A stretch of 49,175 nucleotides of DNA, from positions 1-49,175 of IMG/VR virus record IMGVR_UViG_3300032074_000005; one strand, 5' to 3'. The stretch is from a virus (Duplodnaviria > Caudoviricetes). Position numbers and translations under genes: made by a program. The notes under the pieces are model-generated. The model saw only the letters and a program-made list of their open reading frames with translations, was not told where the DNA came from and did not search any database. Positions 23,939-29,725 of this stretch are shown here, in pieces (the first letter of the stretch is position 1; each line of letters begins with the position of its first letter).

Positions 23939-24286
23939 TCAGCTCTGCGAGAAAGTAAAGGTGACGGAGTAGGTCCCCTGCGAGTTGAAAGCCTGGCTGG
24001 TCACCGTCGCCCCGTCGAGGTACGTGCCACCCGTGACGGCCGTGTGCACGCCGACGCCGACGATGGTCGCACCAGCAGGAACGTCGAAGGTGGCGGTTGC
24101 GGTCACGACGCCGTCGACTGTGCCGGCGGTCCAGGTGAGCGGCTTGCGTGCGTAGGCCGGTGACCCACCAGACGGCTCAGTGCCTGCCGACGCACCGGGA
24201 GCGGTCGTGTAGATCGCGCCATAGGTGGCGTTGGTGCCGTATGCGACGGCGAGGTTTTCCTTCTGCTGCGCGGTCTGGATGGCCAC
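23939..24286 (-). CDS. Minor tail protein
   Basis: PG..G.E.SGG..AYAR...W...FDVP.G.T....G. Confidence 0.65.
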   Translation of the reverse strand: MAIQTAQQKENLAVAYGTNATYGAIYTTAPGASAGTEPSGGSPAYARKPLTWTAGTVDGVVTATATFDVPAGATIVGVGVHTAVTGGTYLDGATVTSQAFNSQGTYSVTFTFSQS

Positions 24287-24310
24287 GGGGTCTCCTTCAG
24301 GTTGGGCGGG

Positions 24311-24631
24311 TCAGTGGGAGCCGGTGAACGGGGTTGTATCGGGGCCGTGCTTGGAGAATCGACCGTGCGAGTCGCGGTCCGCGGCCTTCTTGATGCCTTC
24401 GTGGAAGGGTTCCGAGTTCGGCAAAGCGTTGATGTGCACCGCACCCTTGACCGGCGTGACGAACTGGCGGCTGATGAACCCGGCGACAATGGGCGCGAGG
24501 AGTGCGACGGCGCCCATGATGGCGGCGGTCTGCTCCTTGGACAGGTGCAGGCCGAACGCTGCGGCGAGGGCGAGACCTGCGGCGACGATGGCCGTAATGG
24601 TGGAGGCGGAGAGAACGGGCTCGCGCTTCAT
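24311..24631 (-). CDS. Holin
   Basis: EPV...two TM helices...R.FVTPV; GAGGAG RBS. Confidence 0.75.
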   Translation of the reverse strand: MKREPVLSASTITAIVAAGLALAAAFGLHLSKEQTAAIMGAVALLAPIVAGFISRQFVTPVKGAVHINALPNSEPFHEGIKKAADRDSHGRFSKHGPDTTPFTGSH

Positions 24632-24664
24632 GGTGCTCCTCAGATTTCGTTGAGAAAAGGTGGG

Positions 24665-24701
24665 CAGGTGTATTGACAGGTGTATGTACACCTAGTAGTG
24701 T
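24665..24701 (+). promoter_or_regulatory. SigA-type promoter with overlapping operator
   Basis: TTGACA(24673)-17 nt-TAGTGT(24696); palindrome AGGTGTA-tg-TACACCT; direct repeat CAGGTGTAT. Confidence 0.8.
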
Positions 24702-24749
24702 TCTTCTTGTCAGGCGGAAAGGCCGCCTCGGAGCCCCAGGAGGGCGAAA

Positions 24750-24875
24750 ATGTTCGCTACTCTCGCCGCCGCCAAGGTCGCCGCTCGCGAGTTCTTCGCA
24801 TCGGACTCCCGCATCGCCGCGGTCGTCTACATCGTCGCCGGCCGCGAGGTGCGCATCACACGGAAGGACGTGTGA
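24750..24875 (+). CDS. Small hypothetical protein (41 aa)
   Basis: AGGAGG RBS; MFATLAAAKVAAREFF...; TGATG coupling. Confidence 0.6.
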   Translation: MFATLAAAKVAAREFFASDSRIAAVVYIVAGREVRITRKDV

Positions 24876-25027
24876 TGCGGATGCCGAACCAGCCCCGCAA
24901 GGAGAACCCTGCCCGCGCCATTCGCGTGCCGGACGAGTTGTGGCAGGCCGCTCAGAAGCGAGCGGGCGAACGAGGCGAGACGGTCAGCGAGGCCGTACGC
25001 CGATTCCTAGAGAGGTACGTGAAGTGA
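24875..25027 (+). CDS. Ribbon-helix-helix (CopG/Arc-like) repressor
   Basis: RAIRVPDELWQAAQKRAGERGETVSEAVRRFL. Confidence 0.85.
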   Translation: MRMPNQPRKENPARAIRVPDELWQAAQKRAGERGETVSEAVRRFLERYVK

Positions 25028-25227
25028 CCGAGCCCAACGCTGTAGCCCACACCGCCGAGAATGACGCAGTGGAGCGTGCAGCCTGCGCCCTCGATGACTT
25101 GGCGCTGGCACTAATGAGCGGGAGCGCGGACAACCCCGAAGGGAACCGACTCACCGCCGCCGTGGTCCACAAGTGTGCAGCAATCGTCCGACAGCACCGC
25201 GTCACACCGTCAAAGGCCGACGCATGA
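25024..25227 (+). CDS. Hypothetical cassette-type protein
   Basis: ..AVAHTAENDA...RVTPSKADA; motifs A and B. Confidence 0.7.
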   Translation: MTEPNAVAHTAENDAVERAACALDDLALALMSGSADNPEGNRLTAAVVHKCAAIVRQHRVTPSKADA

Positions 25228-25276
25228 CCGCCGCCGACTGCCCCACCCCGACGCTCGCGAGGAGTGGAAGCCCTAG
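25224..25276 (+). pseudogene. Chimeric deletion remnant
   Basis: 25218-25252 matches the start of gene 6739..6969 (34/35); 25256-25272 matches the end of the DUF6221-like gene (17/17). Confidence 0.65.
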
Positions 25277-25422
25277 TCGGTGTAGGTGAGGTGGAAAAGG
25301 GACTGTGAGTCGGCTGCCCGTAGTGCTGCGCTGAGCCTCGGGTCGGTGGCTGCCTGCTGTGCCACGGTCATCGCGCGCCAGGCGTCGAGGATGGCGTCGG
25401 TGAGCGCGTCGGGCCGGTTCAT
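25273..25422 (-). CDS. Hypothetical protein (49 aa)
   Basis: MNRPDALTDAILDAW...; ATGA-coupled to the EEP ORF. Confidence 0.5.
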   Translation of the reverse strand: MNRPDALTDAILDAWRAMTVAQQAATDPRLSAALRAADSQSLFHLTYTD

Positions 25423-26219
25423 GACGTCATTCGCCGTAGGAATGCGCCGAACCGCTGCATGGCTGAGGGTGTGGGCGGAGGCGTGAGGCCGGTCGCACGC
25501 AGGTTTGCCACCTGGAAGTCGTGGTCGCTGGCGTTGGCGTAGACCTCATGTGACAGGAATGAGAACTCCCAGTTGGAGCCGGGCGCGTTGACGTAGCCGA
25601 TCTTGTCGATTCCGTTATGACCACCCTGGACGGCCCACACCCAGCCGGGAACGACGGGCGGCATGTCCGGCCAGTTCGAGTCCAGACAGAGCAGCACATT
25701 CAACCCGGCTGCGAGCCACCACGCGATGTTGTCGTGGAGGCCGGCGAACTCCTCGGACCGTGCGGCCTTGCGCCAGTCGAGGTTGTCGTTGCCCGCATAC
25801 ACGCCAGAGACAAGGTGCGTCCCACAGAACACGAACGGATCCCAGTCGGCGCGCGCGGTCCAGTTGAGCGCGGCGTGCGTGAGGTCTCGGTGAGGAGAGA
25901 CGTGCGCCTTGCCCTTGGATAGCAGCGTGATATCGGAGACGAGCATGTGTCGCCCCGTCGGGTCGACCGTGGACGGCAGCCGATCCGGCGTGGTGAGCGC
26001 CCAACGGTCCCGCTTGACGAGCAGGTCGTTCTCAGAGCTCGCGGTGAAGTGTTGCCAGCGTGACGACGGGAGCGTCTCGTCGAGTGCGGCGTTGTCCTCA
26101 GCCTCGCTGGTCTCCTGCGTGGCGAGCAGCCCGACCTGCGCGTTGGCGGCCTTGGCGACCTGCACGACGGTCGCATAGGGCAGATCGCCAGCCTGTCCCG
26201 CGGCGGCGGGGATGTTCAT
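25419..26219 (-). CDS. Exonuclease/endonuclease/phosphatase (EEP) family domain, possibly expressed as a frameshift extension of the endolysin
   Basis: SMNI, ATQE, GTHL, LDSN, IDKI, SDH motifs. Confidence 0.8.
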   Translation of the reverse strand: MNIPAAAGQAGDLPYATVVQVAKAANAQVGLLATQETSEAEDNAALDETLPSSRWQHFTASSENDLLVKRDRWALTTPDRLPSTVDPTGRHMLVSDITLLSKGKAHVSPHRDLTHAALNWTARADWDPFVFCGTHLVSGVYAGNDNLDWRKAARSEEFAGLHDNIAWWLAAGLNVLLCLDSNWPDMPPVVPGWVWAVQGGHNGIDKIGYVNAPGSNWEFSFLSHEVYANASDHDFQVANLRATGLTPPPTPSAMQRFGAFLRRMTS

Positions 26220-26265
26220 GCTTCCCGCGCCGAAATCCTCGACGGCGGCGGGCGGAACCGGGTCA

Positions 26266-26303
26266 GGCGGCGCAGGGGGTACTGGCCGCCGTCCTATTTT
26301 CCC
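26266..26303 (-). promoter_or_regulatory. Candidate -1 programmed frameshift signal
   Basis: G GGA AAA directly before the lysin TAG; hairpin begins 6 nt downstream; the -1 frame is open into the EEP ORF. Confidence 0.7.
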
Positions 26304-27673
26304 TGATCGATGGCCGTCTGTAGCAGGGTCGTCAGCGCGTCCAGCTTCGTGCCGATCTGGCCGAGCGCGTCGACCACCCGGTCCTGTACGAGATCCTGCC
26401 GCGACACCATGCCCGCGAGCGTGCCCTCATTGACCTTCTTGCCGTGCGCGTCCTTGTTGGCGACGGGCGTGCTGGCAACGGCCTTCTGCATGAGGGCGAC
26501 CAACTGGTCGGGCGTGTAGGGCATGTCATCCTCCGGCGGGGTCGGTGGCGGGGTGGGCTTCTTGGGGTCGTTGCCGGTGAGTCGGTCCGTGGCGGCCTTG
26601 ACGAGCGTCATGAACCGGTCCCAGGGGAAGCCGGCGCCGGGGTCGGTGTGTGTGGTCTGGTGCCAGGCGTTCGACACGTCGACGTGGCCGCAGATGCCGT
26701 GCTGTCCGGCGACGAGTTGCCCGGACGAGAGTTTGACGATGGGCACCTTGTACGCGAGGCAGAGTTGCGCCACGAGGTCGGCAGCGCGCTCGAGCATGGC
26801 GGTGTGGTTGGCGTCGTTCCAGCGGGCAGCGGATCCGGTCACGGGGTCGCAGAGTTCGACGCCGATGCTGTCCTGGTTCGGGGGCGCGTGGTAGGCGACG
26901 GTGTGGTCACCGACGCACTGGATGACCTCGCCGGGATCGACAACGTAGTGGGCGCTGGTCTTGTTCGTCTCGGTGGCGAAGAAGTGCGCGATGTTCCGGG
27001 CGCCACCAGCCTCGCACGGGGAGACGGTGCCGTGGATGACGATGCGTTTCGCCGGGGTCTGCGCGCCACCATGCCAACGTGCGGCGATGAATGGCGGTGA
27101 CGGGGGGGCGATGGGCACGGGCGTACCTCCTGCGAGTCGGGTGGTCCACTCGTCGACGAGGGCGGCGAACCGCTGGCCGTATGCGACCGCTGAGGCGTCG
27201 GGGTTGGTGCCGCCGTTGTAGTGGGCTCCGGCGTCTGCCCATGAGCCCCAGCGCGCGTAGTTCGCAGCCATCAGCTCGAAGCCAAACCGGCAGTTGTCGA
27301 GCGGCACCCACGGCTGTAGACCACGGGCGGCCATCTGTGTGAAGTAGCCGCCGTCACGCTTGCCGTTGACGAGTGTGCCGGCGTAGGTGATCTGGCAGGG
27401 TCCAACACCGTTGGACGTCGCGCCTGCCATGACTTGTGTCAGGAAGTCGGTGAAGTTGGCTTCGGTGACCTCGAGCGTCTGACCAACGGGTAGTGAGTTG
27501 ACGCCGCCGACGTCGTGGCCGTAGATGTTCGCGCCGCCCGACTCCATCTCGATCAGCGCACACGCGGCGGGCAGCGGTAGAGGTGCGACGACCGACGCGG
27601 CGATGATCTCGGGCGCGTTCTGGAGGTAGGCCGCGACGATGAGGGTCGGGTCGGTCGGCGTCGTGATGATCAC
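26294..27673 (-). CDS. Endolysin: SLT/lysozyme-like domain plus Amidase_2 domain
   Basis: IEMESGG..GVGPCQ..HYNGG; IVIHGT, SAHY, AYHA.N..SIGVE, GH.D..H.DPG..FPW; GGAG RBS before the GTG. Confidence 0.9.
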   Translation of the reverse strand: MIITTPTDPTLIVAAYLQNAPEIIAASVVAPLPLPAACALIEMESGGANIYGHDVGGVNSLPVGQTLEVTEANFTDFLTQVMAGATSNGVGPCQITYAGTLVNGKRDGGYFTQMAARGLQPWVPLDNCRFGFELMAANYARWGSWADAGAHYNGGTNPDASAVAYGQRFAALVDEWTTRLAGGTPVPIAPPSPPFIAARWHGGAQTPAKRIVIHGTVSPCEAGGARNIAHFFATETNKTSAHYVVDPGEVIQCVGDHTVAYHAPPNQDSIGVELCDPVTGSAARWNDANHTAMLERAADLVAQLCLAYKVPIVKLSSGQLVAGQHGICGHVDVSNAWHQTTHTDPGAGFPWDRFMTLVKAATDRLTGNDPKKPTPPPTPPEDDMPYTPDQLVALMQKAVASTPVANKDAHGKKVNEGTLAGMVSRQDLVQDRVVDALGQIGTKLDALTTLLQTAIDQGK

Positions 27674-27683
27674 GCCGGCTCCG

Positions 27684-28157
27684 CTACGGCGTGACCGCTG
27701 GAGATGTAGAAGACCATGACGCCGCCTCTCGTCTTGCTTGAAATGCCCGACGACGGGCGGCTTGACATGTACGGCAGTAGCGGTACCCGGTCTTCTTCTG
27801 CACGTAGGTGTTTGCCTCGTCCAGTAGATGGCCGGACTTGCACCGTTCGGGGCGGAACGCCGCGTCACGTACGTCTCGGGGAATCCGCTCGAGGTTGACT
27901 GAGCAGGTAACCGGCTCGAGGTGCCAGGGGTTGACGCACCAGCGATTCCGACACAGGTGGTCGATCATGAGTTCGTCGGGAATCTCGCCGCGGAGGCTGG
28001 TATAGGCCCAGCGGTGAGCGCGCACGTACCGCTCGCTGTCCCAGAAGTTGCCGTAGCCGTGACTACCGATAGCGCCAGTCCATCGCCAGCACTCGTCGTC
28101 CTGCGCGACCTTCTCCCAGAAGCGCTCGTCTACGGGCCTGCGCGTACGCTTGCTCAT
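27684..28157 (-). CDS. HNH homing endonuclease (HNH_3 type)
   Basis: RFWEKV..CWRW..AHRWAY..IDHLCRNRWCVNPWHL; CKSGH..RYCRTC. Confidence 0.9.
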   Translation of the reverse strand: MSKRTRRPVDERFWEKVAQDDECWRWTGAIGSHGYGNFWDSERYVRAHRWAYTSLRGEIPDELMIDHLCRNRWCVNPWHLEPVTCSVNLERIPRDVRDAAFRPERCKSGHLLDEANTYVQKKTGYRYCRTCQAARRRAFQARREAASWSSTSPAVTP

Positions 28158-28247
28158 GCGGATACCTCTCGCCAGGTGTTCGCCAGGCCCCGGGCGTTCG
28201 CAGCGCGCCGGGGCCGCCTATTCAATTGCCCTTATTCTATAGGGGGT

Positions 28248-28499
28248 TCAGTGCCACCAGTGCAGAACATGCCCTAGGTACCAGCACCAGGTGACCAGCA
28301 GCGTCAGCCATGTCCCCGCGAACGTCCAGCCGCCCCCAGGGGTGTCGGTGTGGAACCAGGCGCGCGTCCGTTCGGAAAGGGTGTCGCCAGGGACCTTGTT
28401 CTTGATCGCCAGCGCCTCGGGCACAGCGAATCCGCCGAGGACGAGGCCAATCAGCCACACCGCCCAGTAGGCGTGCGGGACTACGACGAGCGCGATCAT
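28248..28499 (-). CDS. Membrane protein (lysis cassette)
   Basis: Two TM segments; E..A......DTLSE..R.W. Confidence 0.7.
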   Translation of the reverse strand: MIALVVVPHAYWAVWLIGLVLGGFAVPEALAIKNKVPGDTLSERTRAWFHTDTPGGGWTFAGTWLTLLVTWCWYLGHVLHWWH

Positions 28500-28508
28500 G
28501 GGGCCTCC

Positions 28509-28667
28509 TCAGTCGACGACGGTCAGCCGGTGGTCGTTCACGCACAGCACGATCCGGTGTCGTACCGGGTTGCCCTCGGGGTCGGGGATCGTGTAGTCGT
28601 CGACCACTTCCGCCGGCCGCAAGCACTTGTCGTCAGCGCAGACGGTGAAGATGAGCGAGGCGGTCAC
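28509..28667 (-). CDS. Small Cys-containing protein
   Basis: GGAGG RBS, GTGA coupling. Confidence 0.5.
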   Translation of the reverse strand: MTASLIFTVCADDKCLRPAEVVDDYTIPDPEGNPVRHRIVLCVNDHRLTVVD

Positions 28668-28960
28668 TTGTCCTCCCGGCCCGCGCGCCAGATGATGAGG
28701 CACAGCGCAAGGAACTGCTGCCACAGCCCCAGGAACACCAGGGCGTACACGACTAGGCGCGTGATGCCGTTGTTGCCGAGCAGCCCGAAGTAGTGCGCCA
28801 CCGACAGGTCGACGAGCAGTGCCAGACCGATCGCCTTCGTCATCAGCGCACGGCCGAGCAGCGAGCGATACCACGGGCGGGTTGCGTACAGCAGCGGGAA
28901 CAGGGTGGCCGGGAGCACCATGCCAACCACGAGAGCCACGGCGAGAGTGTCGCTAGTCAT
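28664..28960 (-). CDS. Three-TM membrane protein, putative holin
   Basis: Y....PW.RS.LGRALM; hydrophobic. Confidence 0.7.
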   Translation of the reverse strand: MTSDTLAVALVVGMVLPATLFPLLYATRPWYRSLLGRALMTKAIGLALLVDLSVAHYFGLLGNNGITRLVVYALVFLGLWQQFLALCLIIWRAGREDK

Positions 28961-29145
28961 CGCTGCGACTCCTCGAACAGCGCCACAATCGCATCCTTGA
29001 AGCCGTTGCGCCGGACGATCATGCGGGCTTCCTCGGCGAGCTTGCGTGCAGCCTCATGCTCCCGATGCGCTTGTTCCAGCCACCGCTCAGCCTCCCTGGC
29101 CTTCCGCTCAGCCTGAGCGGCCCGGTGACGCCACGGCCACCTCAC
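28957..29145 (-). CDS. Small helical protein of the lysis cassette
   Basis: VRWPW...RRNGF; coupled. Confidence 0.6.
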   Translation of the reverse strand: MRWPWRHRAAQAERKAREAERWLEQAHREHEAARKLAEEARMIVRRNGFKDAIVALFEESQR

Positions 29146-29405
29146 GGCGAACTGTCCCGCCTGCGATCCCGAGCCACGTCCAGAAACGCCCGCGTCAACG
29201 CATTCGACTCGCTGATCGCCTTGGAGAAGTCCGAGATGGTCTGATCCTTGATGACATCCCGCTGCATCAACGCCTCGATCTGTCGGTCCTTCGCGTCGAC
29301 TTCCCGCCGCGTCGCCAACCGTCCGGTAGCCAGGAGCCAGCCGAGGAGTGCGACGATCCCAACGACTCCAATGCCATTCAGGAGACCTACCGGCAGCGCC
29401 GTCAT
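29142..29405 (-). CDS. Membrane protein with coiled coil (lysis cassette)
   Basis: N-terminal TM, then TGRL.TRRE; GGAGG RBS. Confidence 0.7.
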   Translation of the reverse strand: MTALPVGLLNGIGVVGIVALLGWLLATGRLATRREVDAKDRQIEALMQRDVIKDQTISDFSKAISESNALTRAFLDVARDRRRDSSP

Positions 29406-29590
29406 GCCATGCCTCCCAGGTGAGGACCGAAGCCCCGGCCATAGCACACAAGCGCGTCTCCCTCGCGTTTGCCCCGGCATGTATCACCACGCCGGGGTGT
29501 GATTCTTTAGTGGTAGCCCGTGACGACCGGTAGGGTCGGTTGCCGCGGGTTAGGTCCGCCCTGGTCTCCCTGGGGCGGGCCGTCCTCCTG

Positions 29591-29725
29591 TTACGTCTGT
29601 GCGAGCCAGGCCGCTGCTGCGTCGTGCAGGTACTTCGGGCAGCTCGACGTAGCCAGGAACCGGGTCAACGCGTCGATGAGCGCCTGCTGCGCGCTAGGAA
29701 CCGGTGCCGCAGCGAGCACGATCAT
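29591..29725 (-). CDS. Hypothetical protein (44 aa)
   Basis: ATGA-coupled to the GH26-like gene. Confidence 0.4.
   Translation of the reverse strand: MIVLAAAPVPSAQQALIDALTRFLATSSCPKYLHDAAAAWLAQT

Follow-up and report, generated by a model that had tools for sequence, protein, structure and literature searches.

How can a protein domain be translated when its reading frame opens at the stop codon of another gene, one base out of phase, and when its only ATG lies inside its own fold? The lysis locus of a tailed phage (Duplodnaviria; Caudoviricetes; IMG/VR record IMGVR_UViG_3300032074_000005) raises this question. The stretch of DNA analysed here, hereafter the window, is the whole virus record of 49,175 nt with direct terminal repeats; it has 66% G+C and encodes terminase, portal, capsid, tail, integrase and lysis genes. 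On its minus strand, the gene of a 459-aa endolysin (lysin) is followed in the −1 frame by a phosphoesterase domain of the EEP (DNase I-like) type. We propose, with a probability of roughly 0.8, that a fraction of the ribosomes slips back by one base at the end of the lysin gene, and that the only route to the EEP domain is as an addition to the C-terminus of the lysin, in which position it would assist lysis as an accessory enzyme. This reading draws on comparative sequence analysis and structure prediction.

A slippery heptamer abuts the endolysin stop codon

The lysin gene ends with CAG GGA AAA TAG on the minus strand. The features of this junction, which recurs in a second, distantly related phage represented by the metagenomic loci L010 and L011, are as follows:

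26294–27673, minus strand: endolysin open reading frame (ORF), 459 aa, GTG 27673 to TAG 26294; lysozyme-like domain, amidase and C-terminal helical domain with Pro-rich linkers between them
26297–26303, minus strand: slippery heptamer G GGA AAA (X XXY YYZ in the zero frame), abutting the stop; invariant together with the following TA in L010/L011
26294–26296, minus strand: lysin stop TAG (TAA in the second phage), from the sequence
26220–26297, minus strand: Pro-rich linker of the −1 frame, running into the first EEP strand; 78 nt (26 codons) open upstream of ATG 26219
25488–26243, minus strand: EEP (DNase I-like) phosphoesterase domain; AlphaFold2 (AF2) model from 38 sequences, predicted local distance difference test (pLDDT) 90, predicted template modelling score (pTM) 0.85
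25419–25487, minus strand: end of the −1 frame, with a short Pro linker, a terminal helix and the TGA stop, from the sequence and the AF2 model

The −1 frame is open from 26297 to the TGA at 25419 (292 codons), and a fusion would comprise 459 + 292 = 751 aa, of which gene callers annotate the EEP part as a clipped 266-aa hypothetical protein. The heptamer at 26303–26297, the open stretch of 78 nt, the ATG at 26219 and a hairpin at 26290–26266 all lie where an initial annotation of this DNA, made from its letters, had placed them. The minus strand of the window has a single GGGAAAA and the plus strand none, base composition predicting ~1.7 for each, so that the mere occurrence of the motif is nothing unusual. 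Its weight comes instead from its placement at the stop and from its two rare codons. Only one of the 32 window genes checked ends in an X XXY YYZ heptamer, GGA accounts for 8% of the Gly and AAA for 5% of the Lys codons, and among 43 Gly-Lys pairs in the window a single one is coded GGA AAA. Window codon usage gives a probability of G GGA AAA, given Gly-Lys, of ~0.37 × 0.082 × 0.047 = 0.0014.

The initial annotation had proposed checking the reads for an indel. Contigs from two sequencing runs, X1 (depth 13) and X2 (14.8), either of which may be the window's source, span the junction with 0 differences and 0 gaps (contigs of runs X3 and X4 do not span it). Because two runs bridge it without a difference, the junction is not an assembly indel. 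Slippage of RNA polymerase on the G3A4 run, rather than of the ribosome, could also yield a fused message: an added base would give the same product, and the DNA by itself does not tell the two apart. With four A residues, though, the run is shorter than known slippage sites. Moreover, PMC4626039 and PMC11749239 report GGGAAAA as a ribosomal −1 site of actinophage tail chaperones, as the initial annotation had stated for phages, and we regard polymerase slippage as very improbable.

The junction is conserved in a second phage

A single metagenome scan returned three loci, the window, L010 and L011, the latter two representing one phage (3 differences in 1210 nt). Its EEP domain shares 125 of 229 residues with that of the window; its lysin carries CHAP-like and GH25 domains in place of the lysozyme-like and amidase domains and ends with GCG GGA AAA TAA. 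Here, too, the EEP lies in the −1 frame, preceded by a Pro-rich linker that is shorter by two codons. The heptamer and the following TA form an invariant block of 9 nt with five mismatches flanking it on each side. Identical codons between the phages are about as frequent as expected in the EEP domain (59/114 observed vs 60.3 expected), in the C-terminal lysin domain (14/28 vs 14.0) and in the linker (5/14 vs 5.2); judged by these counts, synonymous sites between the two phages are saturated. Rare codons are retained at 2 of 20 other positions, and both heptamer codons are retained. Since the heptamer is unchanged amid saturated synonymous sites in two lineages, the site appears to be kept beyond the need of the protein. 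In the linker, 14 of 22 aligned residues are identical in L010 despite so few identical codons, and the alignment score is 45 in the −1 frame as against 5 and 15 in the others. It is thus conserved as protein in the −1 frame only, the frame in which the initial annotation had read a Pro-rich linker.

Two lesser observations concern the same block. Both phages end the lysin with TAR; TGA, the stop of 23 of the 32 window genes, would here create an ATG, a hint drawn from n = 2. A variant X1 contig of the L010 phage differs at 7 positions in 109 nt, without a gap and with no change of heptamer or stop among the differences listed, which is a weak hint. Scans of viral contigs with the EEP domain, alignment A3, the C-terminal domain and a heptamer-plus-EEP pattern yielded no further junction copy, nor did a search of genome contigs with A3; whole-genome searches (401, 401, 401 and 20 genomes) returned only distant cellular copies in G001 and, in G326, the homologue P0017 described below, and no copy of the junction.

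These data bear on a further explanation, in which lysin and EEP once formed a single in-frame gene that a one-base change or an assembly error disrupted, leaving the EEP as a relic. In-frame fusions do exist in the family; however, the identical break and codons occur in two phages with saturated synonymous sites, the EEP is intact with all catalytic residues in both, and two runs agree on the sequence. The relic explanation is close to refuted.

Candidate stimulators of frameshifting

26266–26290, minus strand: candidate 3′ hairpin, −15.1 kcal/mol, beginning 6 nt past the heptamer

The initial annotation had presented this hairpin as part of the shift signal, a role that is not supported here. 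Its z score is −3.1 for a 37-nt piece and 0.25 for 67 nt, where a competing fold arises, and a hairpin as stable at the same spacing is found at 11% of 250 random sites. The L010 counterpart reaches −10.6 kcal/mol with other pairing, a value that 38% of random sites equal. The window hairpin is genuine, yet it is not conserved and does not stand out, and the two phages share no conserved 3′ stimulatory structure of the kind looked for at a −1 frameshift. Upstream, no consistent Shine-Dalgarno (SD)-like stimulator was found (−5.5 in the window, −12.2 in L010 from split pairing), and a simple stem listing revealed no pseudoknot shared between the two phages.

At the −1 site of the window's tail assembly chaperone, G GGG GAA (38784–38778, minus strand), where PHROG chaperone matches occur in both frames, a hairpin of −25.3 kcal/mol begins 3 nt downstream and is equalled by 0 of 250 random sites. 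As this hairpin stands out, the method is able to detect a real stimulator. Stimulators are common but not universal in bacteria, and therefore the missing conserved stimulator lowers the frameshift claim without removing it. A pause may come from the adjacent stop or from the rare Lys codon; a phrase search of PMC5009743 found no passage on stimulation of −1 shifts by stop codons.

Fold and catalytic residues of the EEP domain

The EEP assignment of the initial annotation is confirmed, as AF2, Foldseek and Atlas alike give this frame a DNase I-like alpha/beta sandwich. Foldseek against PDB gave 280 matches at E ≤ 0.001, the best being 3mpr (E 3e-11), an EEP protein of Bacteroides, with a mannosyl-6-phosphatase also among the matches; the best viral match was gp5 of Streptomyces phage Yosif (E 6e-15), and structural matches in the Atlas had template modelling (TM) scores of 0.66–0.75. 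The active-site set, which we take from DNase I and APE1 to be Asn, Glu, His, Asp-x-Asn, Asp and Asp-His, is present in the window domain: E64, H163, D208, N210, D233 and H261 (P0001 numbering) are found in 38/38 aligned rows, N30 in 36 and D260 in 35. Neither Pfam (PF03372 included) nor PHROGs gave a match for the window EEP, and a PDB sequence search returned nothing; among the homologues, 5 of 45 match PF03372 at E ≤ 0.01, one above the cut-off. By these profile searches the window EEP is a member of a divergent subfamily.

In the AF2 model, the first beta-strand (26243–26214) corresponds to P0001 residues 21–30 and the ATG to residue 29. A start at this ATG would thus cut 8 of the 10 residues off strand 1. 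At least 6 residues precede the catalytic Asn in 33 of the 35 other rows that have it, the exceptions being P0004 and P0007, which start at the Met and fall into one clade with the window and L010, supported at 100/96 (tree of 61 rows with domains >170 aa, shorter matches left out; the tree was not used for the order of events). P0008, P0014 and P0017 have this Met at an internal position, in the last behind a GTG with a good ribosome-binding site (RBS). RBS strength was estimated here by anti-SD duplex energies, a crude measure and not the RBS Calculator of PMC9430671. With −3.2 for the EEP ATG (−3.0 in L010), −1.7 for a GTG in the L010 linker, and −1.9 and −4.4 for the ATA that overlaps the stop, none of these candidates has an RBS. 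Independent initiation at the ATG, which the initial annotation had expected to clip the fold, would do so, the codon lying inside the first strand.

In-frame fusions and separate genes among the homologues

Once the window's protein and a spurious repeat protein are set aside, 44 of the 46 representative hits remain, and four of these are in-frame fusions with wall hydrolases: P0031 joins an amidase to the EEP, P0044 a partial amidase, P0040 an M15 peptidase plus a glycoside hydrolase-like domain, and P0017 a lysozyme-like domain. The window amidase is 67% identical to that of P0031; the N-terminal domain of the window lysin shows 34% identity to the domain fused to EEP in P0017 and 39% to the L006/L007 lysins. 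Ten viral loci were found in addition (L012–L021, all but L019 read), among which L013 encodes EEP+M15, L017, L018 and L020 represent one GH25+EEP gene, and L014 has the EEP gene immediately after a CHAP-like lysin gene; a further search added L033, again amidase+EEP in frame, and two repeats. Nine cellular genome loci were found and 8 read. There, L024 encodes PG_binding_1+EEP, and L025, L029 and L030 have twin-arginine-like leaders (by eye), the cellular homologues including Streptomyces and Stackebrandtia. A search with A1 for longer homologues (525–2000 aa) found none among 7993 candidates, which is weak evidence, as the fusions found later are 428–642 aa and distant. On this comparison, the frameshift would assemble what other phages encode as one uninterrupted gene. 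The subfamily, unstudied so far, turns up repeatedly next to actinophage lysins or within them, in no fewer than four hydrolase contexts. The initial annotation had predicted a programmed −1 frameshift and had pointed to homologues as its check; the heptamer, stop position and frame offset kept in L010/L011, the position of strand 1 upstream of the ATG and the natural in-frame fusions all speak for it.

Two side observations on the family may be added. P0036, a homologue of 532 aa, apparently holds two EEP domains in tandem. A 'predicted tail fiber protein' of Citrobacter phage CR8 (BFVD W6PNE5) matches the EEP fold, hinting that EEP domains are found on virion surface proteins, too.

Several findings weigh against a frameshift-made extension. 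Only two phage lineages carry the junction (n = 2), and the hairpin next to it gives no support. In the L011 lysin, AAA is used at 3 of 17 Lys codons, one of which is that of the heptamer, and is therefore less rare than in the window. Several called window starts also score weakly in anti-SD pairing, and a missing RBS is thus not decisive; the GTG in the L010 linker is in frame. Most members of the EEP family are stand-alone, and some, including cellular genes and the viral loci L012, L015 and L016, lie outside lysis contexts. P0005, 60% identical and in the same clade, is recorded with its own start 19 residues before the Met.

The stand-alone homologues, P0005, and L014 with its lysin and EEP as adjacent separate genes would fit an EEP made as a separate protein by translational coupling, with ribosomes stopping at TAG and restarting at the overlapping ATA (26297) or at ATG 26219, and the heptamer incidental; in both phages the ATA shares bases with the stop, much as in ATGA overlaps. 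Yet coupling leaves unexplained why two rare codons were kept amid saturated synonymous sites, and a TGA stop would have supplied a normal ATG where both phages use TAR. Neither ATA nor ATG has an RBS, the latter would delete most of strand 1, and the 26-codon Pro-rich leader resembles the inter-domain linkers of P0031 and L033. We therefore consider coupling unlikely and a −1 shift the better account of the junction.

Predicted internal starts and the predicted set of lysin forms

The lysin gene itself appears to hold two further signals, each at a boundary between its domains:

27119–27673, minus strand: N-terminal lysozyme/SLT-like domain, aa 1–185; Pfam SLT match weak (E 0.005, below the cut-off)
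26636–27058, minus strand: Amidase_2 domain, aa 206–346; PF01510, E 2e-18
26297–26524, minus strand: C-terminal domain, 76 aa; AF2 monomer with mean pLDDT 74 and pTM 0.33, from two sequences
27116–27131, minus strand: predicted internal start 1, GTG 27118 (codon 186), at the amidase boundary; AGGAGG, 7 nt spacing, −11.6 kcal/mol, best of 19 in-frame starts
26522–26534, minus strand: predicted internal start 2, ATG 26524 (codon 384), where the C-terminal domain begins; GGAGG, 5 nt spacing, −9.5 kcal/mol

Both internal starts outscore the 5′ GTG (−5.8) in anti-SD pairing, and a control set of 18 other window genes, with 343 internal starts, contains no case of GGAGG 4–8 nt upstream. The amidase genes of P0031 and L033 begin at about the residue of internal start 1, and at the place of internal start 2, L010/L011 have GGAGG, 5 nt and a GTG. 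In the L011 lysin, the GH25 boundary has such a start at codon 135 and the C-terminal boundary one at codon 362, each scoring −9.5, so that strong RBSs with in-frame starts between domains are kept at two sites in two phages. The EEP boundary is the only one without an RBS and carries the slippery site in its place. In other lysins, SD-like motifs accompany internal in-frame ATGs at domain boundaries in L006:2491 (−9.3), L013:4685 (−7.9) and L014:3851 (−6.9), suggesting that internal starts are common in this lysin group. According to PMC9430671, roughly half of Gram-positive endolysins have predicted in-frame internal starts; several cases were confirmed, and some of these proteins form hetero-oligomers.

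The two internal starts would thus likely yield three nested N-termini, each lysin form (459, 274 and 76 aa) being accompanied by a minor extended form (751, 566 and 368 aa). The two lysin forms of the initial annotation, of about 459 and about 750 aa, agree with the lengths of 459 and 751 aa found here, but two is probably too few, as the internal starts predict up to six.

The C-terminal domain is common to the window and L010 lysins (42% identity). Its model consists of a helix, a beta-hairpin and a 40-residue helix, with heptad spacing in both phages (by eye), and it is a predicted oligomerisation or wall-binding module; a word search gave no homologue, none was found in phages (best E 6) or in the Atlas, and no family match was obtained.

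The proposed sequence of events is as follows. The late mRNA would be translated from the three starts (5′ GTG, GTG 27118 and ATG 26524). At GGA AAA TAG most ribosomes would terminate; some would shift, very probably by tandem slippage of tRNA-Gly and tRNA-Lys from GGA AAA to GGG AAA, and then read ATA, translating 292 more codons. The 368-aa form, the C-terminal domain joined to the EEP, may be the main EEP carrier, as the 5′ start has the weaker RBS. Once holins have acted, the chains would reach the wall, possibly as mixed oligomers. From the modelled, coiled-coil-like C-terminal domain shared by all forms, we give an even chance to co-assembly, in which the frameshift rate would set the number of phosphoesterase heads per complex. 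A programmed frameshift of this kind would tune the composition of the lysis enzyme itself; gene callers overlook such a frameshift extension.

Possible substrates of the EEP domain

Wall polymers are tied to peptidoglycan via a sugar-phosphate link. The predicted metal-dependent EEP could well cut wall-polymer phosphodiesters, either at this link or within teichoic-type chains, a proposal that we hold to be about evenly balanced between right and wrong. Such cleavage would open the wall to the amidase and the lysozyme. Teichoic acids limit endolysin action, as stated in a passage of PMC10778630, and a phage enzyme removing wall teichoic acids during lysis would, if confirmed, fill a gap in the understanding of Gram-positive wall opening.

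The main rival is a fusion that is made as proposed and acts as a nuclease or phospholipase, on released host DNA, biofilm DNA or membrane phospholipid. The structural neighbours of the domain are only 11–16% identical and comprise DNase I, TDP2, CCR4-type nucleases, phosphatases and neutral sphingomyelinase, so that the substrate is deduced rather than read off the fold, and the Circinus/BillNye homologue sits, outside a lysis cassette, in a cluster of tRNA genes. On the other hand, the repeated fusion to amidase, GH25, M15 and lysozyme-like domains and to PG_binding_1 points to the wall, as do the twin-arginine-like leaders of the Streptomyces and Stackebrandtia homologues and the Bacteroides protein and mannosyl-6-phosphatase among the structural matches. 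Activity on nucleic acid or lipid is accordingly possible and, in our judgement, the less probable option. Taking all elements together, we put forward only tentatively a combinatorial endolysin, in which three starts and one frameshift would give six chains that assemble by way of a common coiled coil. The frameshift would then dose a new class of lysis enzyme, an EEP phosphodiesterase detaching phosphate-linked wall polymers from peptidoglycan, as a counterpart of LysB for actinobacteria without mycolic acids.

The phage and its lysis cassette

The window's phage occurs in soil metagenomes. The nearest cultured matches of its portal protein are actinobacterial phages (Rhodococcus, Mycobacterium, Gordonia) at 27–31% identity. 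The minus-strand cassette consists of holin-like genes, an HNH endonuclease gene, the lysin (27673–26294), the EEP frame (to 25419) and another holin-like gene:

28664–28960, minus strand: holin-like gene, upstream in the cassette; PF23778, E 1e-10
24311–24691, minus strand: holin-like gene, downstream of the EEP; phrog_9752 holin, E 2e-8

At the position matching the downstream holin-like gene, L010 has an ORF for a membrane protein (by eye). In Streptomyces phage Yosif (L021), the EEP gene adjoins a small membrane-protein gene (1421–1651) that resembles, by eye, the window's 28499–28248 (phrog_3555). The HNH endonuclease gene is free-standing (28157–27684, minus strand), between the holin-like genes and the lysin. 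A 15-codon ORF at 27717–27670 (minus strand) has GAGAGG upstream (−6.9), and its TGA overlaps the lysin GTG (GTGA); it may couple translation to the weak 5′ lysin start. Between the EEP and the downstream holin, a small ORF on the opposite strand (25027–24680, plus) has a weak ribbon-helix-helix match (E 0.06). Near the cassette, two large minus-strand genes (23928–22018 and 31050–29722) encode an SGNH/GDSL-like hydrolase domain and an fn3 domain, and an RtcB-type RNA ligase (20072–18816, minus strand) lies beside the integrase. A sigma-70 promoter scan of 24200–29600 found none, the sigma-70 model being uninformative for actinophages.

Comparison with known systems

The programmed frameshifts known from tailed phages mainly concern tail chaperones and capsid or tail extensions. 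In the open-access literature searched, we found neither an endolysin extended by programmed frameshift nor an EEP domain in an endolysin. The closest parallel is the tail assembly chaperone G/GT of lambda and, with GGGAAAA, of TM4 and Microbacterium phage Bush, described in PMC5009743, PMC4626039 and PMC11749239: an X XXY YYZ heptamer of the same letters near the gene end leads to two proteins with a common N-terminus, the short one major and the long one minor. Here, by contrast, the gene is an endolysin, the extension an enzyme of ~250 residues, and the heptamer abuts the stop; compared with the window's own chaperone site, that of the lysin lacks a conserved strong hairpin. Ig-like domains (T3, A2, A118, A500, PSA) are mobile C-terminal domains attached in frame or by frameshift, depending on the phage, according to PMC5009743, and the EEP shows the same pattern. 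They are non-catalytic and found on virion proteins of capsid and tail, whereas the EEP is catalytic and on a lysis protein.

Two-polypeptide endolysins (Ms6 LysA, 2638A, Lys170, CTP1L, LysP7951) have strong in-frame starts between domains, and the short product can co-assemble with the full-length one, as passages of PMC9430671 describe; the word 'frameshift' is absent from its main text. Their products share one stop, while here two internal starts would be combined with a predicted alternative C-terminus. The lysin of the lactococcal phage phi-vML3 is named by PRFect as 'known to contain a frameshift' in a passage of PMC10885494. PMC3111421, however, describes its gene as the source of two overlapping products, the larger lysozyme-like and the smaller holin-like, and not of an extension.

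With the EEP/DNase I-like superfamily (PF03372; Yosif gp5, Circinus gp101 'phosphoesterase', 3mpr) the window domain has the fold and the catalytic set in common; its homologues in cultured phages are stand-alone and 25–28% identical, and the window protein is without a PF03372 match. The proposed likeness to LysB of mycobacteriophages is that of an accessory enzyme detaching an outer wall layer from peptidoglycan, and is an analogy only: LysB is a serine esterase encoded by its own gene, whereas the window EEP is a predicted metal-dependent phosphoesterase that would be attached by recoding.

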